Source: Ruminococcus sp. (GTDB taxonomy: Bacteria; Bacillota; Clostridia; Oscillospirales; Ruminococcaceae). From it: a stretch of DNA of 64,000 nt. The stretch covers positions 36,715-100,714 of the forward strand of contig NZ_JAILNU010000075.1 of the NCBI RefSeq assembly GCF_024691275.1, read 5' to 3'. This document shows positions 8,655 to 60,768 of this stretch, in pieces. Made by a program: the position numbers and the translations under genes. The notes under the pieces are model-generated. The model ran no database searches, was not told the DNA's origin, and saw nothing but the letters and a program-made list of their open reading frames with translations. How positions within the stretch are numbered: the first letter of the stretch is position 1; each line of letters begins with the position of its first letter.

Positions 8655-8751
8655 CTTGTATTTTTTGTGAATTTATTATATAATTTAGTTATAAATCCCC
8701 GATCGGCTCATGTTTTTAGTTGATTATACAGAAAAGGGGGAGTTTAAAACC

Positions 8752-41195: not shown

Positions 41196-41205
41196 GGTGA
41201 ATGAT

Positions 41206-41892: not shown

Positions 41893-41894
41893 CT

Positions 41895-43453: not shown

Positions 43454-43485
43454 CCCCTCTGAATCTTATCAGAGGGGATATTTTT
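43454..43485. terminator. bidirectional terminator (bioB / anti-sigma gene)
   Basis: CCCCTCTGA / TCAGAGGGG stem followed by a T-run. An A-run lies on the other side. Confidence 0.8.
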
Positions 43486-44698: not shown

Positions 44699-45270
44699 AT
44701 TAAGCCCTCCTTTATTCCCATTGAGCTAAGTTGTTTCCTGAGTTTTTCAAGTGCGCGGCTGCTGCGTACACGTACAGCCTCGGGAGTCATTGATACAAGT
44801 TCAGCTATCTCCTTCGAGCTTCGCATAAAGAAATACTTCTGCATTATTATCGTTGAATCTGGGGTGCCGAGGAGCTCTATACATTTCAGAAGAATGGAGC
44901 GAAGCTCTTTTTTCTCGACAGTTTCAACTGTATTGTCAGGAGCTTTTAGTTCAGCGGTTTCTTCGTCATCAACTGAGACCGTTGCGAGATTATTTTTTGT
45001 GAGCTTTTTGTAAACATCTATAGCTTTTCGTCTTGCAACAGTTCCGATAAAAGCTGATATATTACCGATAGGAGCTTTGTTTTCGTTGTAGTATATGTAT
45101 ACATCGGCGAAAACGTCTCCCACACATTCTTCGATATCCTCAGGTTTTGCGCAGCTGCGGAGTTTACCGTAAACTATAGTATATACATAGCTGAAGTATT
45201 CATCGAACAGAGCTCTCTGAGCCTGTTCAGACGAGCGGTCTGCGTTTTTGCGGAATTCATCTTTGGTCAT
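44695..45270 (-). CDS. sigma-70 family (ECF-like) RNA polymerase sigma factor
   Basis: Region 2-like EDIEECVGDVFADVY. Region 4 HTH SSKEIAELVSMTPEAVRVRSSRALEKLR. Confidence 0.8.
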   Translation of the reverse strand: MTKDEFRKNADRSSEQAQRALFDEYFSYVYTIVYGKLRSCAKPEDIEECVGDVFADVYIYYNENKAPIGNISAFIGTVARRKAIDVYKKLTKNNLATVSVDDEETAELKAPDNTVETVEKKELRSILLKCIELLGTPDSTIIMQKYFFMRSSKEIAELVSMTPEAVRVRSSRALEKLRKQLSSMGIKEGLI

Positions 45271-45441
45271 TATCTATCACCTCGTAAAGTAAAGCTTTTT
45301 CAATGCATTGCGACGGCTTTCATAATATCTATTCCGCAAAAGCATCATAAACGTAACAGGAAAATATATATTTTTTTGTTTTAATCATAGATTTGCGGCG
45401 TTCACCTTGAACTCATTATTTAGAAGGGCGTTTTCTGACAG

Positions 45442-45472
45442 AAAAAGAGCTCCGAGGCGCACCTCAGAGCTC
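45442..45472 (-). terminator. intrinsic terminator of the VanY-like gene
   Basis: On the minus strand, GAGCUCUGAGG / CCUCGGAGCUC form a stem followed by UUUUU. Confidence 0.75.
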
Positions 45473-45487
45473 GTGGAAAAGCATTTA

Positions 45488-46441
45488 TCAGTGATAGTAT
45501 GAGTCTATACCGAAGTATTCCTCAAGAGTAAGACCGCTGTTATGGATAGCGTAAGACATATCAGTACCTACATAGCGGATATGCCATGATTCATACTTAT
45601 AGCCTGTGATGTTCTGCTTGCCCTGCGGGTAACGGAGGATAAATCCATACTCGTGGCAGTGATTCTCGAGCCAGACAGCTTCGGGAGTGCCTATGAAGGA
45701 GTCGTCTATCTGGTTGACATCAATGGCAAGACCCGTCTGATGCTCGGAATATCCTGGACGTGCGGAATATGTATCTGCTGCTGCCTGTCCGTCACGGGCT
45801 ACGTAGTTATTGTATATCTGAGCCTGATAATCGTATGAACGGTAGCCTGATGACAGCCATATGTTGAGACCCTGCTGTGAAGCTGCATTCTGGAGCTTGT
45901 AGAACTGGTTGAGGCAGGTCTGGTCAAGACCTGGAGCAAAGCCGGCAGGGAGGCTGTAGGACTTGTTTGCGATGAGTACGCCCTGAATGTATGTCATGCC
46001 GTCGTAGTTGTATACTGTAGGTGCAGCACCGTAATTGCTGTCGTTCGGTGAAGGAGCTGTGGTGTTGGAAGGAGTATATGACGGAGCAGGTGCGGATTGC
46101 TGCGGCTGTTCCTGCTGCTGAGCTGGCTGCTGAACGGGCTGCTGTGCGGCTGCACCGCCGCCTGCGGGAGCAGCTTCGTTTGACTGAGCAGCTGTTGGTG
46201 CCTGTGTGGGAGTTTCAGCAGTGGTGGTCGCAGTTGTCTCGATATTGGCAGCTGAAGTGGTTGCAGATGCAGCTGCCTTTGTAGTCGAAGTTGTTTCGCT
46301 CTGCACCTTGGCAGTGCCCGATGTTATTTTTGCAGTTGACGCAGAAGGAAGCACGTCAGACTGACCTACGATGTCTTTTCCGCAGCCTGTGCATGAAATG
46401 ACAGCTGCGAGTAATAATGTAATAAATAAACGTCTTTTCAT
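45488..46441 (-). CDS. M15B (VanY-type) D-alanyl-D-alanine carboxypeptidase lipoprotein
   Basis: Lipobox VISCTGC and a Thr/Ala/Gln-rich linker. Motifs SGYRSYDYQ, PGYSEHQTGLAIDV, EYGFILRYPQGK...ESWHIRYVG. Confidence 0.88.
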   Translation of the reverse strand: MKRRLFITLLLAAVISCTGCGKDIVGQSDVLPSASTAKITSGTAKVQSETTSTTKAAASATTSAANIETTATTTAETPTQAPTAAQSNEAAPAGGGAAAQQPVQQPAQQQEQPQQSAPAPSYTPSNTTAPSPNDSNYGAAPTVYNYDGMTYIQGVLIANKSYSLPAGFAPGLDQTCLNQFYKLQNAASQQGLNIWLSSGYRSYDYQAQIYNNYVARDGQAAADTYSARPGYSEHQTGLAIDVNQIDDSFIGTPEAVWLENHCHEYGFILRYPQGKQNITGYKYESWHIRYVGTDMSYAIHNSGLTLEEYFGIDSYYH

Positions 46442-46754: not shown

Positions 46755-47189
46755 ATGGACTACACGATACACGAAAATACACTGAAAACAGATCGCTTTA
46801 TTGAGCTTTGGGAGTCTGCGGGCTGGGGCAGCCTCGACCGCGAACTCGTTGAAACTTCACTGAAGAACAGCTATGTTACTTTTGAAGTTAGGGACGGCGA
46901 AAAGACTATAGCTATGGCAAGGCTTATCGGTGACGGCGCAATGGCATTCTTTCTGAAAGATCTTGTTGTGCTGCCTGAGTATCAGGGGAAAGGTGTGGGA
47001 AGGCGGCTGCTCACTCATATTGAGGAGTATATCCGCAGTCAGCTTAAAGAGGGATGGTGGTCGTACCTACAGCTTATGAGTGCTAAGGATAAAGAGGAGT
47101 TTTACCTGAAATGCGGCTATAAAGCACACCCCCATGAAAGAAGCGGAGCAGGATTCACAAAAGTACTGATCGGAGGAAAAAATGCCTGA
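46755..47189 (+). CDS. GNAT family N-acetyltransferase
   Basis: LVVLPEYQGKGVGRRLL motif A. Confidence 0.8.
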   Translation: MDYTIHENTLKTDRFIELWESAGWGSLDRELVETSLKNSYVTFEVRDGEKTIAMARLIGDGAMAFFLKDLVVLPEYQGKGVGRRLLTHIEEYIRSQLKEGWWSYLQLMSAKDKEEFYLKCGYKAHPHERSGAGFTKVLIGGKNA

Positions 47190-47655
47190 AATAATTATGA
47201 CTTGCGGCAGGATATGCAGCGGAAAAAGTACCTACGCACAAAAGCTCGGCATGGAGCTCGGTGCAGTGATACTCTCTATCGACGAGCTTATGATATCAAT
47301 TCTCGGAAAGGAAACAGGCGATATGCATGATGAATATGTTCGCCGCAGCGAGAAGTACCTGTACAAAAAAGCCGCAGAGATAGTCTCTGCGGGAACTGAT
47401 GTTATCCTCGACTGGGGATTCTGGACAAGGGAGCAGCGCAGCTTCGCAAGGTGCTTCTTTGCCGAGCGCGGTATCGACTGTCAGCTGCACTATATACACG
47501 TCAGTGATGAGGAGTGGCAGCGGCGTATAGCTCAGCGCAATGCCGAAGTGGAAGCAGGCACGAACGATGCGTACTTCATCGACGAGGGACTTGCGGAAAA
47601 GTTCAGGTCGATATTCCAGATGCCTGACAGATCTGAGGTCGATGTACTTGTTTAA
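47182..47655 (+). CDS. P-loop kinase-like ATP-binding protein (AAA_33 / zeta-CPT-like)
   Basis: Walker A GRICSGKST. ~155 aa. 8-nt overlap with the upstream GNAT gene. Confidence 0.6.
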   Translation: MPEIIMTCGRICSGKSTYAQKLGMELGAVILSIDELMISILGKETGDMHDEYVRRSEKYLYKKAAEIVSAGTDVILDWGFWTREQRSFARCFFAERGIDCQLHYIHVSDEEWQRRIAQRNAEVEAGTNDAYFIDEGLAEKFRSIFQMPDRSEVDVLV

Positions 47656-47667
47656 AATGTTTTGCGT

Positions 47668-48210
47668 TTAATCGCGTTCGATGCAGTAGCACACCTCACC
47701 TGTCGGGAGCTCTCCCTGCTGACGGAAGCGCTCAACATTGTCGGTGATGTGCATTTCTGATTTTTCGAGAACTCGTCCCGACTTTGTGTTCTCAGCGCGG
47801 TGATAGGCTTCGAGCCGCTTGAAATCCGTGCTTTTCATTATCTCGGCGATGACAGCCGAAAGAGCTTCTCCTGCGTAGCCATGCCCCTGAAAAGCTCTGC
47901 CTATGCAGTATTCGATCTCGGCTGTACGTATGTCCTCGTATACTCTGCAAAAGGCTATCTGACCGATGTTCTGACCGCTTTCCTTTTCAATCACAGCCCA
48001 GCGGTAAAAGCTGTCAGAGGCGTAACCGCTCATGTATTTGTCAAGAAGCGCCTGAGCTTCTTCGGCTGTGGGATATGAAGGCTCGCCGTATTCGCTCTGC
48101 ACAGCCTCATCGCCTGCCCAGTTGGTGAGCATATCTTCGAGGTCGTTTTGTGCGAATCTGCGCAGTGTGAGCCGTGGTGTGCTTATGGTTTGTGTGCCGC
48201 AGTGTTTCAT
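47668..48210 (-). CDS. GNAT family N-acetyltransferase (RimJ/RimL-like)
   Basis: RLTLRRF N-terminus and FQGHGYAGEAL motif A. Confidence 0.8.
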   Translation of the reverse strand: MKHCGTQTISTPRLTLRRFAQNDLEDMLTNWAGDEAVQSEYGEPSYPTAEEAQALLDKYMSGYASDSFYRWAVIEKESGQNIGQIAFCRVYEDIRTAEIEYCIGRAFQGHGYAGEALSAVIAEIMKSTDFKRLEAYHRAENTKSGRVLEKSEMHITDNVERFRQQGELPTGEVCYCIERD

Positions 48211-48719
48211 CTGATACGCTCCTTTGCAACGCGGTCATAGTATGATATATCGTCTTCATCTTTGATATATCCGCCGTTTTTCAGCATAACTCTGAGAGAG
48301 GCGGGATTATTTTTGTGAACGCAGAGATATACCTCGTCTTCGGGAACTGTTTTGGCAGCTTCTTTGAGCAGAAGTGCAAGACCTGCCGAAGCATAGCCTT
48401 TTCTGCGGTGTTCCGGAGCTATGTAATATCCTATATGACCTGCTCCCGTTATAAGCGACTCGCAAAGATAGTGGCGGAGGTCGAATTTCCCGACGATATT
48501 TTCGCCGTCCCATAAAAAGTAGGAAGTTGCCGGAACATAGCCTTCGGGGAGGCGTCCGCCTTTAGAGTTTGCGATGATACAGTCGAGAGCATCGACGAAG
48601 TCCTGACGTGAAATGCCGTTATATTCATTGATATAGCCGTTTTCGTCGGAGGGGATATCTCGGACGAAAAGGTATTCTTTTTCGATATCGTCTGTATTTG
48701 CTGCTTTCAGGTATATCAT
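48207..48719 (-). CDS. GNAT family N-acetyltransferase
   Basis: EHRRKGYASAGL motif A. ATG 48719 follows AAGGAGA. ATGA overlap with the downstream GNAT gene. Confidence 0.75.
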   Translation of the reverse strand: MIYLKAANTDDIEKEYLFVRDIPSDENGYINEYNGISRQDFVDALDCIIANSKGGRLPEGYVPATSYFLWDGENIVGKFDLRHYLCESLITGAGHIGYYIAPEHRRKGYASAGLALLLKEAAKTVPEDEVYLCVHKNNPASLRVMLKNGGYIKDEDDISYYDRVAKERIR

Positions 48720-48926
48720 GATAGTTTCTCCTTTTATAATATTATATATTGAATGAGCCGCTTTTTCAATAGATAAGCTAAACAAAATTAAATATTTATA
48801 CATTGCTTTTCTGTTTATTGCGTGATATAATTATTATAATTGATTTAATGCTGCGGCATACCGTGCGTTCATACCATAACGCTTAACGTATACGATCCGC
48901 ATTTTCAACAGACAGGAGGAGATATT

Positions 48927-49382
48927 ATGACGGAGATCAGAAGACTTGGGGCAGATGATATTGATATTATAAAAGAGCTTTTTATATCAGTCTTTACCAG
49001 CGAACCGTGGTTCGATGACTGGAGCGACCCTGTTCAGCTGAACAGCTATATCCTTGACCTGATAGGGAATAACAATTCTCTTTCGCTGGGACTTTACGAA
49101 CATAATGTGCTTGTGGGACTGGCGCTTGGCTATATCATGCACTGGTTTGCGGGCACGGAGTACTATATCCATGAGTTCTGCGTAAAGACGGAAAAGCAGG
49201 GGAAGGGTCTGGGCAGTGAGTTCATGCGCCTGATAGACGAATATGTGCGAGGACTTGACGTGGATCATATCTTTTTGCAGACTGACAGATCTCTGCCTGC
49301 TTTTGATTTCTACGTAAAAAACGGCTTCAGAGAGCTTGAAGGCCATGTTTCTCTTGTACGCCGACCGGACGATAAACAGTGA
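48927..49382 (+). CDS. GNAT family N-acetyltransferase
   Basis: KTEKQGKGLGSEFM motif A and a YVKNGF C-terminus. Confidence 0.8.
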   Translation: MTEIRRLGADDIDIIKELFISVFTSEPWFDDWSDPVQLNSYILDLIGNNNSLSLGLYEHNVLVGLALGYIMHWFAGTEYYIHEFCVKTEKQGKGLGSEFMRLIDEYVRGLDVDHIFLQTDRSLPAFDFYVKNGFRELEGHVSLVRRPDDKQ

Positions 49383-49435: not shown

Positions 49436-49515
49436 CGTAAATAATGACATATCGGTATTTTGTGCGTTTTGCATTATATATGTTTGTGAGTTGTGCAATA
49501 AACTTATTCAAAATA

Positions 49516-49544
49516 TTGACAAATCGTGTTCAAAGTGGTATAAT
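49516..49544 (+). promoter_or_regulatory. sigma-A promoter (extended -10) of the FHA/PP2C/kinase/surface-protein operon
   Basis: TTGACA (49516-49521), 17-nt spacer, TGgTATAAT (49536-49544). Confidence 0.7.
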
Positions 49545-49645
49545 AATTCGTAAGTTTGTTTTTTTCTGTACGTTGTGTGTCAATAAGGTGGGTGAAGTGC
49601 AGAAAAAGGCGAGATTTCGCGTTAGTTTCATTTAGGGGTGAGAAG

Positions 49646-51001
49646 ATGGCTGGTAATATCACTACAAAGCTGCTTTATCAGGGCTGCGATACGTTTTTGC
49701 AGGCAGTTCTGAAAAAAAGAGATAAAATAAACGAGAAACAGTTGCAGTTCATCAACGGGAATACTGATAAGGGCTTCCTGAATGTAAGATGGGAAAAAAC
49801 GGCTACAAGAAATGTGCTGAAGTATAATGTAAGCAACATGACTGCGCTGTCGGAATATATCAAGCAGACTATGCCGCAGGATAAGTATTTCGCTATACTG
49901 AGCCAGTTTCAGAAGATAGTGGAGTTCTGTATGAGCGCAACTATCCCCTATGACAATATCCTGCTGAATGATCTGAAGAACGTGTATTTTGATGTGGAAA
50001 AGCAGAAGCTCTATGTAGCTTATCTGCCGCTCCTCGAAAACGGCTATAGAAGTGCCAATATGATAAAGTTCCTCAATAAGCTGAACAAGAATGCAAATAT
50101 CACTATCACCAACGGAACGGTCATGCAGAAGTACAGCTTCTTCCTTGAGGAGCAGATGAACGCTCAGAAGGACAAGGGCGGCTTTATCTCGCCGAAAAGC
50201 CTTCACACCGTGCTCCATGATGTGCTCATGGTGCCTGAGGCAGCCGAGCAGCAGATGAGCAGCAATGCCGCTCCCGTGAATATCGCTGCTGCGGAGGTCA
50301 AAAGCACTGCGCCTGCGGACGACGACTCTGACCATACCATTCTTGTGAACAGGAACAGGAATGCGGATTGCCCTGCTTTCCTGAAAGACGAGAACAACAG
50401 GGAAATACCTATCACACGCTTCCCGTTCACTATCGGACGCAGACCCGACAACGATCTTGCGCTTACCGATAAGGGAACTGTCTCCAAGGAACACGCTGTT
50501 ATAACCTGTTCGGACGGAAGCTTCTATATCGAGGACAAGGGATCTGCTAACGGCACCTTCCTCAATAATTGTACGGATAATGCAAAGAGGATATCAAAGG
50601 AACAGCTCAACAGCGGCGACGTGATCTATTTCTGCGATGTGCCTTACGTGTTTACAGTCAATGCAAGTGATTCCGCCACTGTCATAGTGGGGGACAAAAA
50701 CAGTGCAGCTGCCAGAAAAGCCGATCCTGCAATGGCAAAAAAAATCGCTTACCTTGTGAATTCATCAAGCAAGGAGCGCATACCTGTGTTCGTTTATCCT
50801 TTCACCTGTGCCGAGCTTTCGGGACTTATCATCGGACGTGAAAACAACGGCAGCAGACACAGCATATTCATCGAGAATATATCCTGTCCGTCACTGAGCG
50901 TTGAGGGCTGTGAAGTGCCGTCGGGTGAAAAGACGAGTATATTTTCAGGCTGTAATTTCCTGTATCACGGTATCGTGTATACCTTCTACGAAGAAAACTG
51001 A
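49646..51001 (+). CDS. FHA domain-containing protein (unassigned ~230-aa N-terminal domain + FHA + unassigned C-terminal ~110 aa)
   Basis: Canonical FHA: FPFTIGRRPDNDLAL...VSKEHAVI...IEDKGSANGTFLNN. ATG 49646 follows GGGGTGAG. Confidence 0.85.
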   Translation: MAGNITTKLLYQGCDTFLQAVLKKRDKINEKQLQFINGNTDKGFLNVRWEKTATRNVLKYNVSNMTALSEYIKQTMPQDKYFAILSQFQKIVEFCMSATIPYDNILLNDLKNVYFDVEKQKLYVAYLPLLENGYRSANMIKFLNKLNKNANITITNGTVMQKYSFFLEEQMNAQKDKGGFISPKSLHTVLHDVLMVPEAAEQQMSSNAAPVNIAAAEVKSTAPADDDSDHTILVNRNRNADCPAFLKDENNREIPITRFPFTIGRRPDNDLALTDKGTVSKEHAVITCSDGSFYIEDKGSANGTFLNNCTDNAKRISKEQLNSGDVIYFCDVPYVFTVNASDSATVIVGDKNSAAARKADPAMAKKIAYLVNSSSKERIPVFVYPFTCAELSGLIIGRENNGSRHSIFIENISCPSLSVEGCEVPSGEKTSIFSGCNFLYHGIVYTFYEEN

Positions 51002-51015
51002 CGGTGGGAAATGAT

Positions 51016-51795
51016 ATGGAATATGTTTTTTCTTATGTGACGACCGAAGGCGCTGTACGAAAGGTCAATCAGGATTCGCTGTTTATCGCGGAGGCTGCCT
51101 TCGAGGACGACAAGGTGCTGTTTGCAGCTGTCTGTGACGGAGTTGGCGGCCTTTCGTCAGGCGAAAAAGCCAGCGGCTTCGTTTGCAAGCGCATGAACGA
51201 GTGGTTCGCCGACGAGTTTCCCGAGCTGCTGCGCTGCTCTGCATCGGTACTGAAGATAAGGGAGTCTATCGACGACAGGCTCCACGAACTCAATGACTGC
51301 ATAAATTCATATGCGGAGAAACACGCCTCGGATATGGCTACGACGTTTACGGGAATACTTATAATCCCGCATATGAACGTGCTCCTGACAGCTCATGTGG
51401 GCGATACGCGCCTTTACAAGATAACCGAGAACGAGATAAAGATACTCACCTCAGACCACTCCGTTGTCGGTCAGGAGCTGAGGAACGGCACTATAACCGA
51501 GGAAATGGCTGAAAAAGATCCGAGACAGAACCAGCTCACAAACTGTATAGGTGCAGGACTGGAGGACACTTCTTACGATTACAGCATTTCCGAATTCAGC
51601 AAAGGCGAGTGCTATATGCTTTGCTCGGACGGATTCAGGAAAAAGGTGTCCGCAGATGAGCTGAAGGTGGCGCTCTGTCCGTCGGCAAACAAAGATGAAA
51701 AGACGATAAGGTCTAACCTTGAAAAGCTGAAAAATAAGGTCATTCAGTGCGGAGAAAAGGACAATATTACTGCCCTTATGGTCAAGCTCTGCTGA
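51016..51795 (+). CDS. PP2C-family Ser/Thr protein phosphatase
   Basis: Motifs VNQDS, AVCDGVGG, MLCSDGF, EKDNITALMV. An in-frame GTG at 51004 is an alternative start. Confidence 0.88.
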   Translation: MEYVFSYVTTEGAVRKVNQDSLFIAEAAFEDDKVLFAAVCDGVGGLSSGEKASGFVCKRMNEWFADEFPELLRCSASVLKIRESIDDRLHELNDCINSYAEKHASDMATTFTGILIIPHMNVLLTAHVGDTRLYKITENEIKILTSDHSVVGQELRNGTITEEMAEKDPRQNQLTNCIGAGLEDTSYDYSISEFSKGECYMLCSDGFRKKVSADELKVALCPSANKDEKTIRSNLEKLKNKVIQCGEKDNITALMVKLC

Positions 51796-51811
51796 AAGCG
51801 AGGAGATCCGT

Positions 51812-53512
51812 TTGCTCAACAAAGGCTTTGTCCTTGAAAATAGATACAAGATCGTTAATGTCGCAGGTAAGGGCGGTACATCTGTGGTGTACAGAGCCGT
51901 TGATCTGAAGGCGAATAACGCTCAGCGAGCCGTAAAAGAGGTCATGAAGACAAATGGTACGGACGCTTACAATGCAAGACAGGAGTCGCTCCTGATAAAA
52001 GAATTCTATGAGAAGGACGTGAAAAACTCCTTCTTTCCCAATATAATCGAGATCATTGACAATGACCCGAATGCACTGTATATCGTGCAGGACTATATCA
52101 ACGGAGTCTCTATGGAGAAGCTCCTTGCCTATGATCCCTTCCGTCACAAGACCGTGCTGAGATATGCCAAGGATATATGCTATGTAATGTCGTTCATACA
52201 TAAGTGCGGCTTCATACACAGCGATATGAAGCCCGACAATATCATGGTCGTGAGGAATGAGGAGGACTTTGAGAACGCAAAGCGCCCCGATAAGTTCGGC
52301 AAGCTGAAATTCATAGACTTCGGCTCTGTTATCGAGAGACAGGAAGGTACTTTTGCCTATACTCCCGCCTATGCAGCTCCCGAGCAGTTCAATCAGGAGG
52401 AGCTGGACGAGCAGACCGATATCTTCAATATAGGTGCTACTCTGTACCATATGCTCACGGGAAAAAAGCCGAAAAACGTTTCTGCAAACGGTGAGCTTGT
52501 AAGCTCTGCGGACAGATTCGTTTTCGACAAGGGTGCAAATGCAGGCCTTGTCAGGATAATCCGTAAATGTGTCAGCGATGATAAGACAAAACGCTACCGT
52601 TCGTGTGATGAGCTTTATGAGGAGCTCGAAAGAACGGATAATCATACATACTTCAGAGCAACAGGCATCGTTGCGGGACTGGCGGCACTGTCTCTGTGCG
52701 TATCCCTTTTCGCAGGAATAATGGCGAATAAGAGCAGGAGCGAGGACTTCACAAAGCTTGTCGAAAGAGCTGAAAATACCGCCGAGTATTCTGCCCGTGC
52801 AGACGCTTTTGAGAAGGTGATAATCGCTGACGGTTCTTATGCCGATGCTTACCTGAAGCTCATCGAGCTGTACAAGAACGATATGGTGTTCGATGCCGAT
52901 GAAACCGAACAGATACTTGCCCTCATCAATGAGAATATCAATCTGCTCAAAAAAGATCCGCAGTATGAGGAAGTCGCCTATGAGCTGGGCATACTTTACT
53001 GGTATTACTATTTTTACGGGAATACAAGTGACGATGTTTCTCAGCAGAGCGGCAGTACTTCGGGCAAGATAGCTTCCGTAAAGTGGTTCAGGGAAGCCCA
53101 GACGCAGAATTTCAAGAAGCGCTCGCCCGATAAGTACGAGATAGCTCAGGTATACTGTGCTATTGGTGATTTCTGCTCGCAGACACAGAAAAAGGAGAAT
53201 GAGCTGCTCAAAAAGAACTACTGCAGCGATCTCTGGGACAGCATGAAGGCTCTCAGCGAACTTGTGGAGGAGGCTAATGCCGATTCTGAGATAATAATCC
53301 TGGAGACATATAAAACTCTTATTAATCTTGAATACGCCAATATGAGAGAGCTTGCAAAGTCAGGTATAAACTATGATGAGCAGAAGAGCTTTCTTGATGA
53401 TATAAAGGAAAAGACCGAGAGTATCAATACCGCAGATGATTCTGCAAATGAAGCAAAGAAGTACGTGCTTCGCTTCTATAATGACATAATTGAGGAGATA
53501 CAGGGCGCATAA
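51812..53512 (+). CDS. Hanks-type Ser/Thr protein kinase with one TM and a TPR-like all-alpha ectodomain
   Basis: GKGGTSVVY, AVKEV, HSDMKPDN, DFG, AAPE. TM at GIVAGLAALSLCVSLFAGIMA. No PASTA repeats. TTG start 6 nt after AGGAG. Confidence 0.88.
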   Translation: MLNKGFVLENRYKIVNVAGKGGTSVVYRAVDLKANNAQRAVKEVMKTNGTDAYNARQESLLIKEFYEKDVKNSFFPNIIEIIDNDPNALYIVQDYINGVSMEKLLAYDPFRHKTVLRYAKDICYVMSFIHKCGFIHSDMKPDNIMVVRNEEDFENAKRPDKFGKLKFIDFGSVIERQEGTFAYTPAYAAPEQFNQEELDEQTDIFNIGATLYHMLTGKKPKNVSANGELVSSADRFVFDKGANAGLVRIIRKCVSDDKTKRYRSCDELYEELERTDNHTYFRATGIVAGLAALSLCVSLFAGIMANKSRSEDFTKLVERAENTAEYSARADAFEKVIIADGSYADAYLKLIELYKNDMVFDADETEQILALINENINLLKKDPQYEEVAYELGILYWYYYFYGNTSDDVSQQSGSTSGKIASVKWFREAQTQNFKKRSPDKYEIAQVYCAIGDFCSQTQKKENELLKKNYCSDLWDSMKALSELVEEANADSEIIILETYKTLINLEYANMRELAKSGINYDEQKSFLDDIKEKTESINTADDSANEAKKYVLRFYNDIIEEIQGA

Positions 53513-53528
53513 TGAACGGAGGTGCGGA

Positions 53529-53921
53529 ATGGATTCACATAGCTGGCAGATGATCTCACAGATATTTCTGTGGCTGGGGATACTGCTGCTCATATGTACC
53601 GTTGTGATCGCGGCAAGGTATAAGGTCGTCGCCAATCTCGTATCTGAGATCAAGGCTAAAAAGAGCCCTTCAGAACCATTGAAGGAAGTCCATTCTGCGG
53701 TGATGTCAGGCTCGGGAAGCGTTACAGAAACTGCCGTTAACGCTCAGAATGACGATGAAAATATAACCGTTGTTGTTGGCAGAAAAAAAGCCGAAACCGT
53801 GAATGATACAATTGTGGTCAGCAGAAATAACAGTCCTGAAAACGATTTCAGGATAATAAGAAATATTATTGTTATAAACGCCGATCCTGATGTGATCGAC
53901 GACCGTAGGAGTAAAAAATGA
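53529..53921 (+). CDS. small single-pass membrane protein (130 aa)
   Basis: N-terminal TM (ISQIFLWLGILLLICTVVIAA) followed by a Ser/Thr/Asn-rich hydrophilic tail. RBS GGAGGTG. ATGA overlap with the next gene. Confidence 0.55.
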   Translation: MDSHSWQMISQIFLWLGILLLICTVVIAARYKVVANLVSEIKAKKSPSEPLKEVHSAVMSGSGSVTETAVNAQNDDENITVVVGRKKAETVNDTIVVSRNNSPENDFRIIRNIIVINADPDVIDDRRSKK

Positions 53922-54892
53922 AAGTTATCAGAACAGCCTTTGGAATTTCCGCTGCTGCTTTAACTATGGCAGCGGGTATGAATTCATACCCGACAGCAGA
54001 TGCGATAAGCTATACTGCTCCGTCAGATATAGAGCTGAATATGGGCAGCGCCGAGATAGACAGATCGACGCTGAATACTGACAGGGTAGTGGAGATACCT
54101 GTATACATCTGGAACAATCCGGGATTCGTGTCACTGAATGTCATCTTTGATGTTGATGAAAGACTGAGATTTGACAGCGATCACGTTATCAAAAGCGATG
54201 TCAACGGTCTCATGGGAGTAAATATTTACGGCTGCTCAGGGCGTGATAATACCATATCAGCTTCGTTTATTGCGGAGAACCGTTTTAATGATGAAGGTAA
54301 GATAGGTTCGTTCATCGTTACCGTTCCCGCAGGTACTCCGGTAGGCACTTATCGTGTAAATATTTGGGAATCATGCGGAGATTTCAGTACCACGATAATG
54401 ACTCATAACAATAGTGCGGCTGTATTCGGTCTGGAATGTTTTTCTGTTGTTGACGGCGGTGTGATAGATGTTGTCGAGCATTTTTCGGAACGTCCGCCGG
54501 TACAGCAGATCAATGAGGAGAATCCTCAGGAACAGCAGAATAATGAGGATCAGCACGACGAAAAGAAAAATGATGATCCCCAGAATGAAGCGCCTGATCC
54601 TGTGACTACATCGGCAGGCTCGGAAACGACTAAGGTGACTGCAAAGGTAACTACAAGCGGGATTGCAAAGAAAACGAGCGTGACATCTGAGGATGCAGCA
54701 GTAACAGTGTCTTCTACAGTGTCCTACGTTCAGAGCAGCATAAATCCTCAAAGTACAGACTATGAGGAAATAGCATCTCAGAAACAGGAAAACAATACAC
54801 TTGAAAGATTCCTGTTTCCTGTTATCTGTTCGGCAATAATGATCGCTGTTTGTGCGGCAGTCGTTATATCTATTATTAAGGGAGGCAGTTGA
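53918..54892 (+). CDS. membrane-anchored cohesin-like domain protein
   Basis: Signal peptide. ~170-aa beta-sandwich with cohesin-like strands (VEIPVYIWNNPGFVSLNVIFDVDERLRFDS ... IGSFIVTVPAGTPVGTYRVNIWE). Gln/Glu/Pro/Thr linker. C-terminal TM FPVICSAIMIAVCAAVVISII. Confidence 0.55.
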   Translation: MKVIRTAFGISAAALTMAAGMNSYPTADAISYTAPSDIELNMGSAEIDRSTLNTDRVVEIPVYIWNNPGFVSLNVIFDVDERLRFDSDHVIKSDVNGLMGVNIYGCSGRDNTISASFIAENRFNDEGKIGSFIVTVPAGTPVGTYRVNIWESCGDFSTTIMTHNNSAAVFGLECFSVVDGGVIDVVEHFSERPPVQQINEENPQEQQNNEDQHDEKKNDDPQNEAPDPVTTSAGSETTKVTAKVTTSGIAKKTSVTSEDAAVTVSSTVSYVQSSINPQSTDYEEIASQKQENNTLERFLFPVICSAIMIAVCAAVVISIIKGGS

Positions 54893-54894
54893 TA

Positions 54895-57800
54895 ATGAAT
54901 AATGGCGGATTTGATCTTAAAAGAAAAATAGCTTTTGCTGCGGCACTTATTGTAGTATCACATTCTGTCGGGGCTATGCCCATAGCTTCGGCTGCTCCTG
55001 TGTCTGTGAAGGTGCAGAATGTCAACAGACAGACAAAGGCGGAAGAGAATAACGAAGAGCCAGCTGCTCCTGCGGAAACAACGACTTCGGCTGCGGTCAC
55101 AACTTCTGCCGTGACCACATCGGCTGCTGCTGCAACAACTACTGTATCGGAAACTACAGCTGCTGTCACAACAACGCAGAATCCGTATAATGAATATAAA
55201 ATTACAGTCAATTCGATCGAGCTTGATTATGAGGGATTTTCAAGCCTTGCATCAAAGGCACTGGGAGATAATATCATCATAGATGTCGATCCTGAGCGTA
55301 ATTACAGCAATACCGTAAAGGTACCGAAGGCAAATACGGTGAATCGCGGAGATATCTACATCTACCAGAAGAGCATAAAGTTTACCCTCGTTTCCTTCAA
55401 GAATAACGAGCTTGTCTATGATGTCAGCTACAGGGTGAGCGTGGATAAAAACGTCAGGAACGTCGAAATTACCGATGAAAACGGCGAAAAGCTGAACGAA
55501 AGCGTATATCTGCCGCACGGCTCGAAAGTCAATGTCAAGCCGCTCCCTGCGTATATGCTTGATGATAGCGACGATGCGAAGTCCTTTACGCTCGATACTG
55601 CGATGTGGGTCAAGGTGACCGACGAGAACGGCGAAGGCTTCAATCTCGATATAAGCAACCAGAAGCACAGCGTCAAGCCCAAGAAATTCAGCATAAATAT
55701 CTCGAATTATCATAAGGTCTATCATGAGGTTAATGAGAACCAGTCCGATGAGACAGGTCAGAGAGAATTCAAATGGAACGAGATAGATGATTTCTATATC
55801 TATAGTAAAGATAAGTGCGCCCTTATAGTTTCCTATGATAACAAGGTTGAGACATACGAGCTCAAAAATGAGAGGTTCTACCTGAAGGATCTCCTGAAAT
55901 CGGAGAAATTCAAATACATCAACGGAGCAAGGTTCAACATCACAGGTGTCAATCATAAGCTTCACGTAAAGTCTATGTTTGACGGCTCTGAAACGACAAA
56001 AGAGTCGGATATAAATGTTGAGAAGGGCGACGGCAGCGACTATATCATACGTGTGCCGTACCTTGAGAGCAACAATTACCGCCTTGTAAGCTATGACTAC
56101 AAGGGCAACACGTTCTATGTCAATAATGAATATCAGGACAAACTGATCGACAAGGAAAATTTCTACAGGATAACTGTTGACAGTGAGGAAAAGAACATAA
56201 CTCTCAATTATTCACAGATCAGTATGTTCGGAAAATACTCCTTCGTTCCCACAAAAGATGTATACAGAAGGAGCGAACACTGCTATGTGTACGACTCAGC
56301 GTCACCGACTCCGAAATTTATGAATTTCAGCGCTGATTTTGACGGAAGCAACATCTATTACAGCTTTCTCAGAGACAAAAACTCTTTGGAAAGCGGAAAG
56401 TACAGCATTGTTGAGAGATCAAGGACGTTTGCTGTAGATGTTAAGAATATCGGCTATCCTAAGTTCATTTTCGTTACTAATATCTTAAAGAACGGTGATG
56501 TGCTGGAGGGCGGTCTTGAAAACAGTATCTGCTTCTATGACGACAAAAATGCTCCGGGTGTTACCGTTGAACCGAAAGACGGCTGGAGCGGAAAAGACGG
56601 TCTCGAATTCAGAGTAAATACCGATGACAGCGAAGAATGTCCCGTAAGCGGCGGCGGTGAATCTTTCTATGAGCAGAATCTCATAAAGGAAGTATTTGAT
56701 AAGTACATCAATGATAAGTCCGATGACAAGCAGCAGATAAGCGCTCTTTATGTAGGCGATTACAGGTTCGATCGTCCTGCTGATGGCTGGAAGGATGGCG
56801 TTGAACAGGAAGGCACAGTCGAGACGTTAAGCATTACAAAGGCTGAAAATGCGCTTATAACCGTTCTTGCGGAGACAGACCTTTCAATACTTGGATCGGA
56901 ATACGCTTCTCACCCCGAAACAGATGTATTCTATCAGGGCTTTGTCAGGGGCGGCGGCTGTACAAGCCTTTCAGCTTACTACACAAAGCTGGCAAAGACC
57001 ACTCCCGAGGACGAGATGCCCGCAGAGGCAATTGCCTTTGAACACGCTTTTGCAGCTTATAATAAAGCTGTTGACAGCGAAAAAACTGAGGCGGCAGCAT
57101 TAAAGAGAAAGGTTGTCCCAACACTTGTATATAACGCTGAGGAAAACAAATTCATTATAAAGGTAAAAGCTGTTGACAAGCTGAAGGACACAGTGATCGA
57201 GAACAAGAAACTTGTCGTATATGCTGTCGATAATAACGGAAATTCAGACCCTACAGGCAAGTCGGAGACTGTCACTGTTAATCTTGACGGCGAAGCTCCT
57301 GTGATCCACGATAAAAATGATAAGAAGATAAGCGTGGGCGGAACAGCTGAATTTGTCAGAGAGAAAGATGGTGTCAGTGAGTATGTCATCAGGGCGGGCT
57401 CTGTTATCAGTGCGTATATCACTGATAAAGGCATGGGTCTTGATAAGGGAAAATGCGGCTTCGGCACCGAAAAAGAACCATCTTTCATCATGAGCGGCGA
57501 TGACAGCGGCAAATTCACCTATACATTCAGTGATGAAGAACTTGACAAAGAGCTCAAGAGCTTCATAAGCATAAAGGCTTCCGACAGGGCTGGCAACGAT
57601 GCTTCGCTGAACAGCGGCGAAACTGCCGAAAAGATAAAGGTTATCATTGATAAAACCGCTCCGGAAAGCGAGATCCTCAATAGCTCTGTTTCCGAGAACT
57701 GTTTCATTCAGGTGACAGGCGAGGGTGAAGACAAGCAGGAAAAGAAGTGGTTCAGGAACTACAGCGATGTAAGAATGGACATCAGGGCGGCTGATTTGTA

Positions 57801-60546
57801 TCCTGACAAATGTTCGGGTATAAGAAGTCTCAGTATCAGTGTCAACGGACGCGAAAAGAACATAGTTCTTGCCGACAACGGCATCAGTGAGGAAAAGCTG
57901 AATGCTGCGGGAAAATACTATGTAGCGCTTGAATCCGCAGAAGATGAGAACTTCTTCAACGCTTTCCTCAGAAGCAGCGATGACAAGAAACTCAACGTGC
58001 TCATATGCGAAAATGTTCCCTGTATCAGCGAAGGCGATCAGAGTGAGAATATCGAAAATGGCAGCGTAAGAATAGGCTTCTGCGTTGAAGACTTTGCTCA
58101 TAATTACAGCGCGGTCAAGTACGAGACAGTCTACGTGGATCTTTCTGATCCTACGGTAGTTTCGGCAGAGGTGAACGGCAGGAATTTCATCAGGAGCGGC
58201 GATTACTGCTATGATATTTTCGGACGAAGTGAAGCCGTTGTCAGCATCAGAGTGACTGACGATGCTCCAAGCTCAGGTTTCGCAAGTGTGTATGCTTCAC
58301 TTTACAACGAAAATGATGAGCTTGCTGCTGAGAAGATCATTGCCGAGAGATTGGAGTCTGCGGATATATGGAATGTGAGAGTTCCTGTTGATTTCAAGGG
58401 CTACCTTGTGATATATGCAGTTGACAATGTGGGAAGGATTTCCCCCGAAGTCCGTACTAACGGCATAATCACAGAGAGTGAGGAAAAACATTCGGAGGAG
58501 CCGCATATAAACTTCGTGCTCCCTTCGACAAGCCACAAGGACAGGGACGGCAGACCTCTCTACAGCAGCGATATCTCCGTTGATATCACTGCGGAGGATA
58601 AGTTCTCGGGCATCGCGGAGATAATTACTTCCGTTACGGGAAGAAACAGCAGCTCCGTAACTGTTAATGCGGCAGGTGAAGTATCGGGAGCCGATGCAGG
58701 TGAATGGCACGATACTCCGAATAACAGGGAATACAACCTTGTTTCCCGACTCTCGCGCAAGCTGGACATAGCTCAGGATTCAAACAATATCGTTGTTGAC
58801 ATAAGTCTGAAGGATCAGGCAGGAAATCCGCTGAATACTCCTCATGAGACAGTTAATTTCAGCATCGACAAGACCGACCCGAAGATAGATGTTACATATA
58901 CCGATTTGAGTGGAAATCCCGAAAACGGCAGCAAGACCCTTTACAATACCGCAAGACGTGCGCTGATAACTGTTACCGAACGCAATTTCGACAGCTCACT
59001 TGCCGAGGTGCTTGTAAACGGTTCAAGACGCAGCGTTTCGTGGTCTCACGTCAGCGGAACTGAGGGCACTGATGACGCTAAGTATCGTGCAGAGGTAACA
59101 TTTGAGGCTGACGGAAATTATGATCTTAATGTCAAGTGTACAGATATGGGCGGCAGAACTGCCAATGAGTATAAACAGAGCTTTGAGATCGACCGCACTC
59201 CGCCATCGCTGAGTGTAGGCTTCGATAAGTCTGTGACCAATTCTCATTACTATAATGAGCCTGTTACAGCAACATTAAGGATATCCGATGTGAATTTCGA
59301 TGCTCAGAGCATAAATATCACAGGTACTTACAATAACAAGTCCGATGGCTTCCCGACAGCTTCTGCATGGACAAAGTCGGGAAATGAGTATGTTTCGTCC
59401 ATAAGGTTCGAGAAGAACGGCGAGTACGAGATAACTGTATCGGGCCGCGATAAGGCAGGCAATGCGCTTGAGACTTATAACGGAAGCTTCTGCATTGATA
59501 CCAAGAAGCCTGCTATCCGTACAGATAATGTGAGCAGATCTAACAACGGAAGCGAGATACGTCCGCGTATCGAGTTCACCGACACTAATCTTAATAAGGA
59601 CAGCATCAAGATCGAGCTGGACGGCGCTAACCGAGGCAAGTCGCTGGAGTACAGCGGTGAGCTTATCGAGAAGAAGGACGGCTACGAGTATGTCTTCGAT
59701 AATTTCCCGCAGACCGCCGAGTATGACGATATTTATACCATCAGGGCAAGTGCAAAGGACAATGCCAACAATAAGCTCGAACAGAATGTGAGCTTCTCAG
59801 TAAACAGATTCGGTTCCACATTCTCACTTGATGAGGCTACGGCGTTCGTTATCGGCAGGTTCATCTCGGAGCCGCGCGATATCGTCATCACTGAGCGTAA
59901 TGCCGATAAACACGCTGAACCAAGCAAGGTGTACATCACAAGAGATACCGAGATGATAGAGCTCACCGAGAGAAAGGATTATGCCGTTGAAGAAAAGGGC
60001 GGCAAAAATGAATGGGCTGAGTACAGATACGTCATCTATGCAAAGAACTTCGATAAGGACGCTAAGTATACGGTCTCTATCCACTCGGTGGACGAAGCCG
60101 GCAATATAAACGTCAGCGCTGCTCTGAAGAAGAATGCTGCTGTATCGTTCAGTGTAGATAAGACAGCTCCTCTTTGTATACCGCTGAACATTTCCGAAAA
60201 CAGTGCTTACAAGGGCGAGAGCCATACAGCAAAGCTTTGCATCTCCGACAACGTTGCACTGAAAGAGGTAAAGGTATATGTCAACGGCGATCCGGCTCCG
60301 ACAAGAATAGATAATGACGAGTATTCATTCGAGATATACAACTCTCCTCATGCTCAGGAGATATCGGTTGTGCTGACAGATATGGCAGACAACGAGATCG
60401 AATACAATTACAGGAACATACTTGTCACAACAAGTGTGCTCAGACTTCTTATCCGCAAGACATGGTTCAAGATAGCTGGAATAGCTGCACTGCTGCTGGC
60501 AGGAGCTGCCACATTCTTTATCAGGAGAAGAAGACGTTTACGCTGA
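54895..60546 (+). CDS. giant (1883 aa) cell-surface protein: signal peptide, Thr/Ala linker, multiple Ig-like modules, C-terminal TM anchor
   Basis: Signal peptide ending in ASA. Linker TTTSAAVTTSAVTTSAAAATTT. Eight module-boundary motifs D-x-x-x-P (DKNAPGV 56542, DGEAPVI 57286, DKTAPES 57649, DLSDPTV 58138, DKTDPKI 58867, DRTPPSL 59191, DTKKPAI 59497, DKTAPLC 60157). C-terminal IAGIAALLLAGAATFFIRRRRRLR. No LPXTG motif. Confidence 0.8.
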   Translation: MNNGGFDLKRKIAFAAALIVVSHSVGAMPIASAAPVSVKVQNVNRQTKAEENNEEPAAPAETTTSAAVTTSAVTTSAAAATTTVSETTAAVTTTQNPYNEYKITVNSIELDYEGFSSLASKALGDNIIIDVDPERNYSNTVKVPKANTVNRGDIYIYQKSIKFTLVSFKNNELVYDVSYRVSVDKNVRNVEITDENGEKLNESVYLPHGSKVNVKPLPAYMLDDSDDAKSFTLDTAMWVKVTDENGEGFNLDISNQKHSVKPKKFSINISNYHKVYHEVNENQSDETGQREFKWNEIDDFYIYSKDKCALIVSYDNKVETYELKNERFYLKDLLKSEKFKYINGARFNITGVNHKLHVKSMFDGSETTKESDINVEKGDGSDYIIRVPYLESNNYRLVSYDYKGNTFYVNNEYQDKLIDKENFYRITVDSEEKNITLNYSQISMFGKYSFVPTKDVYRRSEHCYVYDSASPTPKFMNFSADFDGSNIYYSFLRDKNSLESGKYSIVERSRTFAVDVKNIGYPKFIFVTNILKNGDVLEGGLENSICFYDDKNAPGVTVEPKDGWSGKDGLEFRVNTDDSEECPVSGGGESFYEQNLIKEVFDKYINDKSDDKQQISALYVGDYRFDRPADGWKDGVEQEGTVETLSITKAENALITVLAETDLSILGSEYASHPETDVFYQGFVRGGGCTSLSAYYTKLAKTTPEDEMPAEAIAFEHAFAAYNKAVDSEKTEAAALKRKVVPTLVYNAEENKFIIKVKAVDKLKDTVIENKKLVVYAVDNNGNSDPTGKSETVTVNLDGEAPVIHDKNDKKISVGGTAEFVREKDGVSEYVIRAGSVISAYITDKGMGLDKGKCGFGTEKEPSFIMSGDDSGKFTYTFSDEELDKELKSFISIKASDRAGNDASLNSGETAEKIKVIIDKTAPESEILNSSVSENCFIQVTGEGEDKQEKKWFRNYSDVRMDIRAADLYPDKCSGIRSLSISVNGREKNIVLADNGISEEKLNAAGKYYVALESAEDENFFNAFLRSSDDKKLNVLICENVPCISEGDQSENIENGSVRIGFCVEDFAHNYSAVKYETVYVDLSDPTVVSAEVNGRNFIRSGDYCYDIFGRSEAVVSIRVTDDAPSSGFASVYASLYNENDELAAEKIIAERLESADIWNVRVPVDFKGYLVIYAVDNVGRISPEVRTNGIITESEEKHSEEPHINFVLPSTSHKDRDGRPLYSSDISVDITAEDKFSGIAEIITSVTGRNSSSVTVNAAGEVSGADAGEWHDTPNNREYNLVSRLSRKLDIAQDSNNIVVDISLKDQAGNPLNTPHETVNFSIDKTDPKIDVTYTDLSGNPENGSKTLYNTARRALITVTERNFDSSLAEVLVNGSRRSVSWSHVSGTEGTDDAKYRAEVTFEADGNYDLNVKCTDMGGRTANEYKQSFEIDRTPPSLSVGFDKSVTNSHYYNEPVTATLRISDVNFDAQSINITGTYNNKSDGFPTASAWTKSGNEYVSSIRFEKNGEYEITVSGRDKAGNALETYNGSFCIDTKKPAIRTDNVSRSNNGSEIRPRIEFTDTNLNKDSIKIELDGANRGKSLEYSGELIEKKDGYEYVFDNFPQTAEYDDIYTIRASAKDNANNKLEQNVSFSVNRFGSTFSLDEATAFVIGRFISEPRDIVITERNADKHAEPSKVYITRDTEMIELTERKDYAVEEKGGKNEWAEYRYVIYAKNFDKDAKYTVSIHSVDEAGNINVSAALKKNAAVSFSVDKTAPLCIPLNISENSAYKGESHTAKLCISDNVALKEVKVYVNGDPAPTRIDNDEYSFEIYNSPHAQEISVVLTDMADNEIEYNYRNILVTTSVLRLLIRKTWFKIAGIAALLLAGAATFFIRRRRRLR

Positions 60547-60556
60547 TATCATAAGT

Positions 60557-60588
60557 AAAGCCGCTCTGGTTTTCAGAGCGGCTTTTTT
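60557..60588 (+). terminator. intrinsic terminator of the six-gene operon
   Basis: AGCCGCTCTG / CAGAGCGGCT stem followed by TTTTTT. Confidence 0.85.
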
Positions 60589-60768
60589 GTTGAAAAGTTC
60601 AACAAAATTCCACAACGATTTGGACATTAATTTAATAAGAATAAACAGTCTGAAAGTAACAGATTTTATCGGGAAATATAAAATGCACGAAATGTCATAG
60701 TCAATTGACAAAGTGCACATAATTGAGCTGCTTGTATTATTCAATCAACCAAATTTAACATAAAACAT

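Follow-up and report, generated by a model that had tools for sequence, protein, structure and literature searches.

We analyzed a 64,000-nucleotide stretch of a Ruminococcus sp. genome (contig NZ_JAILNU010000075.1; hereafter the window), in which the listing of open reading frames (ORFs) and inspection of their junctions revealed six + strand genes, g1 to g6, at 49646-60546. This operon probably supplies the phospho-regulatory and envelope components of a T7SSe-like type VII secretion system (T7SS) in a cellulosome-producing Ruminococcus of the R. flavefaciens group; the window was 99-100% identical to metagenome-assembled genomes (MAGs) of that group. New here are a cohesin-fold component, conserved threonine motifs, and the detached arrangement of the module in a cellulosomal rumen bacterium. 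The operon comprises the following features (AF2, AlphaFold2; TM, transmembrane segment).

49516..49544, + strand: sigma-70-type promoter, TTGACA, 17-nt spacer, TG-n-TATAAT; 12/12 match with extended -10
49646-51001, + strand: g1, TseJ-like predicted cytoplasmic protein, 451 aa; Pfam DUF6382 and FHA
50330..50347, + strand: first threonine motif of g1, D-H-T231-I-L-V, in an AF2-disordered linker
50672..50689, + strand: second threonine motif of g1, S-A-T345-V-I-V, in an AF2-disordered linker
51016-51795, + strand: g2, TseF-like PP2C/PPM phosphatase, 259 aa; Pfam PP2C_2, E 4.3e-11
51812-53512, + strand: g3, TseD-like Hanks Ser/Thr kinase, 566 aa, TTG start; Pkinase, E 5.3e-32
53529-53921, + strand: g4, TseH/TseK-like single-pass protein, 130 aa; TM at about 7-38
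53918-54892, + strand: g5, cohesin-fold membrane protein, 324 aa; AF2, Foldseek, and profile matches
54895-60546, + strand: g6, TseI-like giant, 1883 aa; Pfam Ig-like matches, signal peptide, and TM
60557..60593, + strand: intrinsic terminator; 13-bp stem at 60557-60585 with 7 GC pairs, 3-nt loop, and T run

T7SSe was described bioinformatically from gene neighbourhoods, mostly of bacilli (Garrett et al. 2024, microLife uqae013, PMC11217815). Its published parts are the WXG100 proteins TseA1 and TseA2, the YukD-like TseB, the EssC-type ATPase TseC with FHA domains competent to bind phosphothreonine (pThr), the membrane Ser/Thr kinase TseD with a helical outer domain, the PPM phosphatase TseF, and TseJ, which combines DUF6382 with an FHA domain (PMC11217815). 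TseH and TseK are single-pass proteins with short unstructured cytoplasmic regions and neither a signal peptide nor a folded domain, while TseI has a signal peptide, about 2000 residues of Ig-like character, and a C-terminal TM, and is predicted to cross the envelope as EsaA does; TsxD and TsxI are common to the related T7SSd and T7SSj (PMC11217815). Ruminococcus is not mentioned in the text or the accessible supplements of that paper, and in the literature searched, DUF6382 was mentioned only by Garrett et al., in the preprint and the published version.

The products of g1-g4 and g6 corresponded to this set in domain content and order. g1 is cytoplasmic, with an N-terminal DUF6382 and an FHA domain, as in TseJ; g2 is a PPM/PP2C phosphatase, as is TseF; and g6 corresponds to TseI in architecture and syntenic position. 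g3 has a Pkinase domain, one TM, and a 554-aa alignment with TseD that includes the ectodomain. As for the TseH/TseK pair, one protein (g4) was present and a second was not found; g5, with its signal peptide and folded ectodomain, fits neither. The first-pass annotation, made from the letters of the window, knew of no Gram-positive precedent for such a cluster. The TseJ/TseF/TseD/TseH-K/TseI set of T7SSe (PMC11217815) is such a precedent. The possibility raised there, that the cluster might match an already characterised system, was borne out in part, because T7SSe is known from bioinformatics alone.

The gene order was also shared. In a Neobacillus locus (L031), the genes were arranged as TseC-TseB-WXG100-WXG100-(toxin cassette)-DUF6382/FHA-PP2C-kinase-218aa-giant, the latter part of which is in the same order as g1-g2-g3-g4-g6. 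In the Oscillospiraceae locus L003, genes for an EssC-like protein, an 83-aa protein, and a WXG100 protein were divergent from and adjoined the six-gene cluster. The homologues of this EssC included R. flavefaciens and Ruminococcus MAG proteins with 46-60% identity, and EssC of Neobacillus, Lysinibacillus, and Sutcliffiella with 37-40% identity. Within the Ruminococcus/Oscillospiraceae clade, the FHA/PP2C/kinase module adjoined TseC in every TseC locus examined (7/7): upstream and co-oriented in L032 (R. flavefaciens FD-1), L030, and L035, divergent in L003, L038, and L040, and downstream in L039. The order in FD-1 was kinase-130aa-334aa-giant-311aa-328aa-TseC-TseB-WXG100-WXG100. This cluster is orthologous to that of the window, as the kinase C-terminus was 65% identical and the giant was colinear with 36% identity over 2041 columns, which is within the range of the other window-type loci. 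The pThr-binding residues of the TseC FHA domains were mostly kept in the relatives, with Gln or Lys in place of Arg in some. As circumstantial evidence, a TseC and a TseJ with 53% identity to g1 each occurred on a single Logan contig, in both cases 22,842 bp long.

The first-pass annotation regarded the giant as the regulated output of the kinase triad. The module matches the T7SSe set, and in relatives it lies beside genes for an EssC-type ATPase and WXG100 proteins; therefore, the outputs are likely to be secreted WXG100/LXG-type proteins, and the giant is likely a part of the machine, predicted to span the wall.

g1 consists of DUF6382 (aa 1-195), a linker, an FHA domain (aa 241-340), a second linker, and a C-terminal beta domain (aa 365-451). 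Pfam detected DUF6382 with an E-value of 9.5e-7 (29.1 bits; cut-off, 26.7) and FHA with 1.1e-18 (67.8 bits), and hydropathy revealed no TM in the protein. In the AF2 model, the three domains (1-195, 241-340, and 365-451) were folded, and the predicted local distance difference test (pLDDT) score was below 50 at 200-240 and 341-364. The nearest solved structures to the FHA domain by Foldseek were GarA, OdhI, EmbR, FhaA, and Rv1747, and its GR, SxxH, and NG residues were invariant in 31/31 aligned homologues, suggesting that the domain is pThr-competent. Foldseek with the full model gave only FHA matches among the 50 matches listed and none for DUF6382. A kinase-like Foldseek match has been reported for TsfJ only (Garrett et al. 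2024, PMC11217815). A pseudokinase identity of DUF6382 was not supported; the hhalign alignment to a kinase domain was topologically sensible, but its probability was 2%. Between the C-terminal domain and the FHA domain of g1 itself, hhalign gave 48% probability over 22 columns, which is only a suggestion that the former is a degenerate second FHA domain.

The pattern T-[ILVMT]-[ILV]-[ILV] occurred five times across the six proteins. Four occurrences were conserved, namely T231 and T345 in the linkers of g1 and T80 and T94 in the tail of g4, and the fifth was within the TM helix of g4. The four threonines were retained in all window-type loci with readable g1 and g4 ORFs. Neobacillus TseJ has TTVLG twice ahead of its FHA domain, at a place equivalent to the g1 motifs. 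A hydrophobic residue at pT+3 is a common preference of FHA domains. Because of this preference and of the self-binding precedents of GarA, OdhI, and Rv1747, we infer that the four threonines, T231 and T345 in g1 and T80 and T94 in g4, are candidate kinase targets and FHA ligands.

g4 gave no match in a Pfam/NCBIfam scan. It has an N-terminal TM followed by a tail of about 90 aa that is predicted to be cytoplasmic by the positive-inside rule. The tail carries the motifs ITVVVG (T80) and DTIVVS (T94), and both threonines were invariant in the g4 alignment. The N-terminus and the C-terminal motif of g4 resembled those of the Neobacillus 218-aa protein, which bears five T-x-V-L motifs. That this small protein is a substrate or adaptor, as proposed at first pass, is credible in view of its predicted cytoplasmic tail with two invariant threonines of the T-V-V-V type and the recurrence of the motif, twice, in g1.

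The catalytic and pThr-binding motifs on which the FHA/PP2C/kinase triad had been recognized were all found in the translations. g2 was 36% identical to Neobacillus TseF over the full length (E 3e-44). g3 comprises a kinase domain (aa 1-280), a TM (283-305), and an extracytoplasmic region (aa 306-566), and its alignment with Neobacillus TseD spanned 554 aa with 32% identity (E 2e-77); because the alignment covers the ectodomain, this region is considered homologous to that of TseD. Pfam found no PASTA domain in g3. The ectodomain had been called TPR-like, and a profile comparison with a consensus TPR protein did give a borderline match (E 1e-3, about 50 residues), but Pfam at E<=1 gave nothing meaningful in the ectodomain and no TPR.

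g5 is composed of a signal peptide, a cohesin-fold domain (aa 31-196), a linker of about 100 aa rich in Pro, Thr, Ser, and Gln, and a C-terminal TM (294-324). In the AF2 model, which was built from eight homologues, pLDDT was mostly 81-94 over aa 41-190, with one ten-residue block at 69, residues 197-306 were disordered, and a helix was formed at the C-terminal TM. The top 44 matches of Foldseek against the PDB were all cohesins, with E-values down to 5.5e-7 and target TM-scores up to 0.73, and included R. flavefaciens ScaB, ScaC, and ScaE and the autonomous cohesin 4n2o. A Pfam/NCBIfam scan of g5 itself gave no match, Cohesin included. The profile of the g5 family, on the other hand, reached solved chains named 'Cohesin domain number 2/1/2/4', the best being 10uv_A (E 2e-5). 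A search of 1.84 billion representatives with the profile recovered about 90 full-length relatives of 300-360 aa, and further matches were multi-module proteins with seven Pfam Cohesin domains plus Dockerin (E 1e-9 to 1e-16). Based on the fold and on the profile matches to solved cohesins and scaffoldins, g5 is a genuine, if divergent, cohesin-superfamily protein that is held at the membrane via a low-complexity linker of about 100 aa; the early description of it as cohesin-like was correct.

A cohesin-fold gene of 330-350 aa was located between the small-TM gene and the giant gene in most Ruminococcus/Oscillospiraceae loci. It was missing in L022, where the giant gene directly follows g4, and in L012, while the other five genes persisted, indicating that g5 is an accessory. 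The Neobacillus locus had no g5-like cohesin gene, nor is one on the published list of T7SSe parts. Transmembrane-anchored single cohesins of ruminococci have been interpreted as cellulosome anchors in a study that does not mention secretion systems (PMC13463774, mBio 2026); we infer that 10uv_A originates from that study.

g6 has a signal peptide, a Thr/Ala-rich stretch (aa about 50-95), a variable region of about 1000 aa, an array of Ig-like domains, a C-terminal TM (1858-1876), and an RRRRRLR tail. Matches to Big_13, Big_3_4, Big_3_3, and PKD in Pfam were confined to residues 1144-1536; in the N-terminal 1100 aa, Pfam at E<=1 gave nothing meaningful, and self-BLAST detected no internal repeats at E<=1e-3. 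The giant had been named an Ig-repeat protein, a description that stands for the Ig-like domains at 1144-1536 but not for the N-terminal 1100 aa or for sequence repeats. A sequence search of the PDB with g6 gave no match, and a regular-expression search for dockerin-like Ca-loops in g6 found none. A sortase-anchored LPXTG adhesin was rejected, as the C-terminus ends in ...VTTSVLRLLIRKTWFKIAGIAALLLAGAATFFIRRRRRLR and has no LPXTG. Orthologues of g6 were conserved in length (1850-1964 aa), and mean identity to them rose along the sequence, from 0.19-0.35 in the first 1300 residues to 0.52-0.64 in the final 500, near the anchor.

The genes are tightly packed. The gaps were 14 nt (g1/g2), 16 nt (g2/g3), 16 nt (g3/g4), and 2 nt (g5/g6), g4 and g5 share a 4-nt ATGA overlap at 53918-53921, and a GGAGG-type ribosome-binding site precedes every gene; these junctions, including the overlap, were exactly as first annotated. 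The operon promoter was the sole 12/12 consensus site among 14 kb scanned. When 190 nt upstream of g1 were aligned, the -35 hexamer and TG-n-TATAAT were kept in 15/17 orthologous loci and the flanking bases diverged. Because the hexamers were kept while their surroundings varied, the promoter is more than a chance match. About 20 nt just 5' of the -35 hexamer (AAACTTATTCAAAATA; window 49490-49515) were co-conserved with the promoter across the orthologous loci and may represent an UP element or the binding site of a regulator. An Rfam scan of the whole window gave zero matches, and the leader of about 100 nt thus has no known riboswitch. Other terminator-like matches, located within genes, were weak and at chance rate (13 found vs. 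11.3 expected), and an unrelated sugar ABC (ATP-binding cassette) transporter comes after the operon terminator. The promoter and the terminator therefore bracket the genes as originally stated, and the reading of the six genes as a single unit was reinforced: with the order kept in about 25 independent loci, they appear to form one co-transcribed, co-conserved operon.

The order of the six genes was retained in about 25 independent Ruminococcus/Oscillospiraceae loci. Scanning one genome per GTDB species with the g1 alignment found 22 loci, all of Ruminococcus or Oscillospiraceae; tblastn showed the same gene order in all 22, and the six ORFs were intact across about 22 species-level genomes. 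The 10-kb flanks of these 22 genome loci stop around the end of the giant gene, and the downstream neighbours were read from the metagenome scan. Identity to the window was 63-83% for g2 and g3 (within Ruminococcus), 52-68% for g1, 32-56% for g4, 29-46% for g5, and 35-42% for g6. The cytoplasmic parts are conserved (52-83%) and the surface parts fast-evolving (29-56%); both this contrast and the gradient along the giant would be expected of an exposed envelope machine.

Several observations weigh against assigning the operon to T7SSe. TseC was absent from the 64-kb window, as were TseB and WXG100 when searched by tblastn with FD-1 and L003 proteins. No homologue of the 311-aa protein, the 328-aa protein, or TseC followed the giant in the window, L001, L041, L044, or L045, where the downstream flank was readable, and in L012 a minus-strand ORF follows. 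In view of the readable window-type loci, the free-standing arrangement is common in the lineage of the window, and FD-1 is the exception. In addition, g5 is not a described T7SSe component, the BLAST match of g1 to Neobacillus TseJ was in the FHA domain only, and the first 393 aa of Neobacillus TseI, all that the locus held, did not match g6. T7SSe is itself a gene-neighbourhood inference (PMC11217815). These features could also be explained by a free-standing kinase-gated surface-display module, as modelled at first pass, that is independent of a type VII ATPase and is detached from, or has outlived, a secretion core. Such a module would suit a window without T7SS core genes, an operon with its own conserved promoter and strong terminator, the intact ORFs in about 22 species-level genomes, and the lack of 311/328/TseC homologues after the giant in readable window-type loci, with the minus-strand ORF of L012 instead. 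A distant trio of DUF6382-FHA, kinase, and giant Ig-like genes also occurred next to Tad pilus genes, and the fetched locus contained no T7SS genes, which indicates that an FHA-kinase-giant trio is not strictly tied to T7SS. However, 7/7 TseC loci examined carry the module, the orthologous FD-1 cluster is contiguous with TseC, and TseC homologues are so widespread in R. flavefaciens and Ruminococcus MAGs that their loss from the genomes with a split arrangement would be unexpected; moreover, the window shows just 3.4 kb downstream of the operon. We consider an independent display module unlikely.

The operon could alternatively be a membrane-anchored cellulosome unit, in which g5, as a monovalent anchoring scaffoldin, would bind enzymes that bear dockerins, with the giant as a substrate adhesin and attachment to fibre under the control of the triad. 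g5 has a cohesin fold, and its sequence relatives are dockerin-bearing scaffoldins with Pfam Cohesin domains; the organism is cellulosomal, with GH11-dockerin and leucine-rich repeat (LRR)-dockerin proteins in the window, and an anchoring-scaffoldin role has been assigned to Ruminococcus single cohesins with a transmembrane anchor (PMC13463774). Nevertheless, g5 is dispensable, being missing in L022 and L012 where the other five genes persist, the same module occurs in bacilli whose examined locus has no g5-like cohesin gene, g6 has no dockerin or Ca-loop motif, and the linkage is to T7SS genes rather than to scaffoldin genes. A cellulosome unit therefore seems very improbable. A cassette of the PknB/Stp1/FhaA type for wall growth and division, or an anti-phage kinase system, was suggested by the scores of the kinase and the phosphatase on the NCBIfam Stk1/Stp1 and PADLOC kinase models. 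The NCBIfam scores were far below the curated cut-offs (114 vs. 450 bits and 160 vs. 230 bits), there was no PASTA domain, and the operon has no division or wall-synthesis genes. The PADLOC matches were to the kinase domain and a single weak candidate-phosphatase model, with none for the other four proteins, and a defence system was ruled out because these matches were generic only. With the failed family cut-offs and the T7SS synteny, a wall-signalling or anti-phage role is effectively refuted.

We propose the following working model for the T7SSe-like module. TseD (g3) would sense an envelope or extracellular cue via its putatively helical ectodomain and phosphorylate the conserved threonines of the T-[IV]-[ILV]-V motifs, both in the g4 cytoplasmic tail and in the pair of disordered TseJ (g1) linkers. 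Multivalent binding might then assemble or activate the ATPase at the membrane complex, and TseF (g2) would undo the phosphorylation. The C-terminally anchored giant (g6) may form a stalk across the wall, conserved in its Ig-like part near the membrane and fast-evolving at its exposed tip, and act as a conduit or in target recognition. The cohesin-fold protein g5, held beyond the membrane on its linker of about 100 aa, could be a clade-specific accessory that binds the giant or a secreted or dockerin-bearing partner. The ATPase half is presumably elsewhere in this genome and not adjacent. The gating through pThr-FHA interactions that the first-pass annotation put forward is thus plausible in its logic, but the system it would serve is a variant member of a secretion type already described bioinformatically.

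It is also conceivable, if doubtful, that the module of the R. flavefaciens lineage, free-standing and often near queuosine genes, works without a dedicated adjacent ATPase, and that the cohesin couples the apparatus or the giant stalk to the dockerin/cellulosome system. The cohesin might, for example, recruit secreted proteins or proteins with dockerins to the machine. If true, this would mean the use of a cohesin outside cellulosome assembly together with a phosphorylation-gated surface structure.

The locus extends T7SSe to the main fibre-degrading Ruminococcus species of the rumen. There, T7SS toxins could shape the structure of the community by contact-dependent antagonism. The locus offers testable handles, namely T231/T345 of g1, T80/T94 of g4, the giant with its conserved stalk and variable tip, and the cohesin-fold protein. 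It also calls for caution in cellulosome work, as some 'transmembrane-anchored single cohesins' may belong to secretion-system loci.

Other genes were observed beside TseC and the module in the related loci. TseC was invariably flanked by two conserved soluble proteins, of about 311 and 328 aa (L032 8083-10001, L003, L030, L035, L038, L039, and L040); the latter had a weak Rep3_N winged-helix match, and the pair is not on the published T7SSe list. After the WXG100 pair, a protein of about 650-700 aa with a C-terminal Big_2 domain was found in L032 (16091-18211), L030 (16153-18222), L035 (15788-17896), and L039 (4243-6174). In FD-1, where its N-terminus was read, this protein has a hydrophobic, lipoprotein-like signal segment; it may serve as a substrate, as an immunity protein, or as a component of the machine. 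L039 has two DUF6382+FHA paralogues of 375 and 465 aa (6521-7648 and 16112-17509), one on either side of TseC. In L038 (3281-7843), FHA/PP2C/kinase/small-TM genes were divergent from TseC, with no cohesin-fold gene and no giant, indicating that the envelope genes can be absent or sited elsewhere. The Tad-linked trio was observed on the metagenome contigs L006 (1-17817) and L007, where the distant DUF6382+FHA gene ends a Tad/Flp pilus locus consisting of T2SSE, two T2SSF, Flp1_like, DUF5702, prepilin peptidase, and WG_beta_rep genes, and is followed by a 53-aa gene, a 939-aa kinase, and a 1152-aa He_PIG/CarboxypepD_reg protein.

In the window, folE-queC-queF are located at 40599-42392, about 7 kb upstream of the operon, and queuosine genes (queD/queE/folE/queC/queF) lie shortly downstream of the giant in L001 (16901-19750), L044 (13039-15888), and L045 (2669-5311). 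These positions suggest that a conserved neighbourhood has been rearranged locally. Immediately before the operon (46755-49382) are an AAA_33 kinase-like gene and a run of four ORFs, two of them confirmed as GNAT and two GNAT-like by look; the AAA_33+GNAT pair was also upstream in L001, inverted. On the - strand at 43484-46441, the gene for an ECF (extracytoplasmic function)-type sigma factor overlaps that for a 404-aa putative anti-sigma membrane protein without a Pfam match, beside a VanY-type D-Ala-D-Ala carboxypeptidase whose N-terminal region is long and of low complexity. The window also encodes a GH44 enzyme (1670-4114, - strand), a GH11 xylanase with dockerin (8710-11130, + strand), and a BspA-type LRR protein of 1112 aa with dockerin (25269-28607, - strand). 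The source organism makes a cellulosome; thus, genuine dockerin partners for a cohesin exist in its genome.

Among known systems, the threonine-phosphorylation pathways of the type VI secretion system (T6SS), PpkA/PppA/Fha1 in P. aeruginosa and TssL-Fha in A. tumefaciens, also combine a membrane Hanks kinase, a PP2C phosphatase, and an FHA protein, and pThr on a membrane component gates the assembly of an envelope-spanning secretion machine. The T6SS, however, is an unrelated machine of the Gram-negative envelope with non-homologous structural genes, and the likeness is an analogy only. In actinobacterial GarA/OdhI and Rv1747, the FHA domain binds pThr in the protein's own disordered segments, as proposed for T231 and T345 of g1, but the partners are different (metabolic enzymes and an ABC transporter) and DUF6382 is absent. 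The single cohesins of ruminococci described in PMC13463774 resemble g5 in that their nine-strand beta-sandwich fold is undetected by the Pfam Cohesin model and in that they are tethered through a C-terminal TM helix; they differ in being read as cellulosome anchors, and a link to T7SS loci is unreported for them.

The T7SSb of Staphylococcus and Bacillus has a cytoplasmic kinase-like (the EssB pseudokinase) or FHA partner for the FHA-bearing ATPase EssC, and a very large extracellular wall-spanning protein, EsaA/YueB. EsaA/YueB is exposed and acts as the phage SPP1 receptor, which fits the fast evolution of the tip of g6. In contrast to the present module, EsaA is polytopic and helical, whereas g6 is Ig-like and C-terminally anchored; in addition, the FHA domains of T7SSb EssC lack the pThr-binding residues, and there is no active kinase/phosphatase pair (PMC11217815). 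Compared with T7SSe itself, the operon differs in being free-standing, with no ATPase within the window, in the extra cohesin-fold membrane protein of the Ruminococcus/Oscillospiraceae window-type loci, and in the two soluble proteins beside TseC in Ruminococcus loci, neither of which had a counterpart in the fetched part of the Neobacillus locus. With T7SSe it shares TseJ, TseF, TseD, and TseI, one single-pass protein of the TseH/K kind, and the gene order of Neobacillus, and TseC, TseB, and WXG100 adjoin the module in its relatives.

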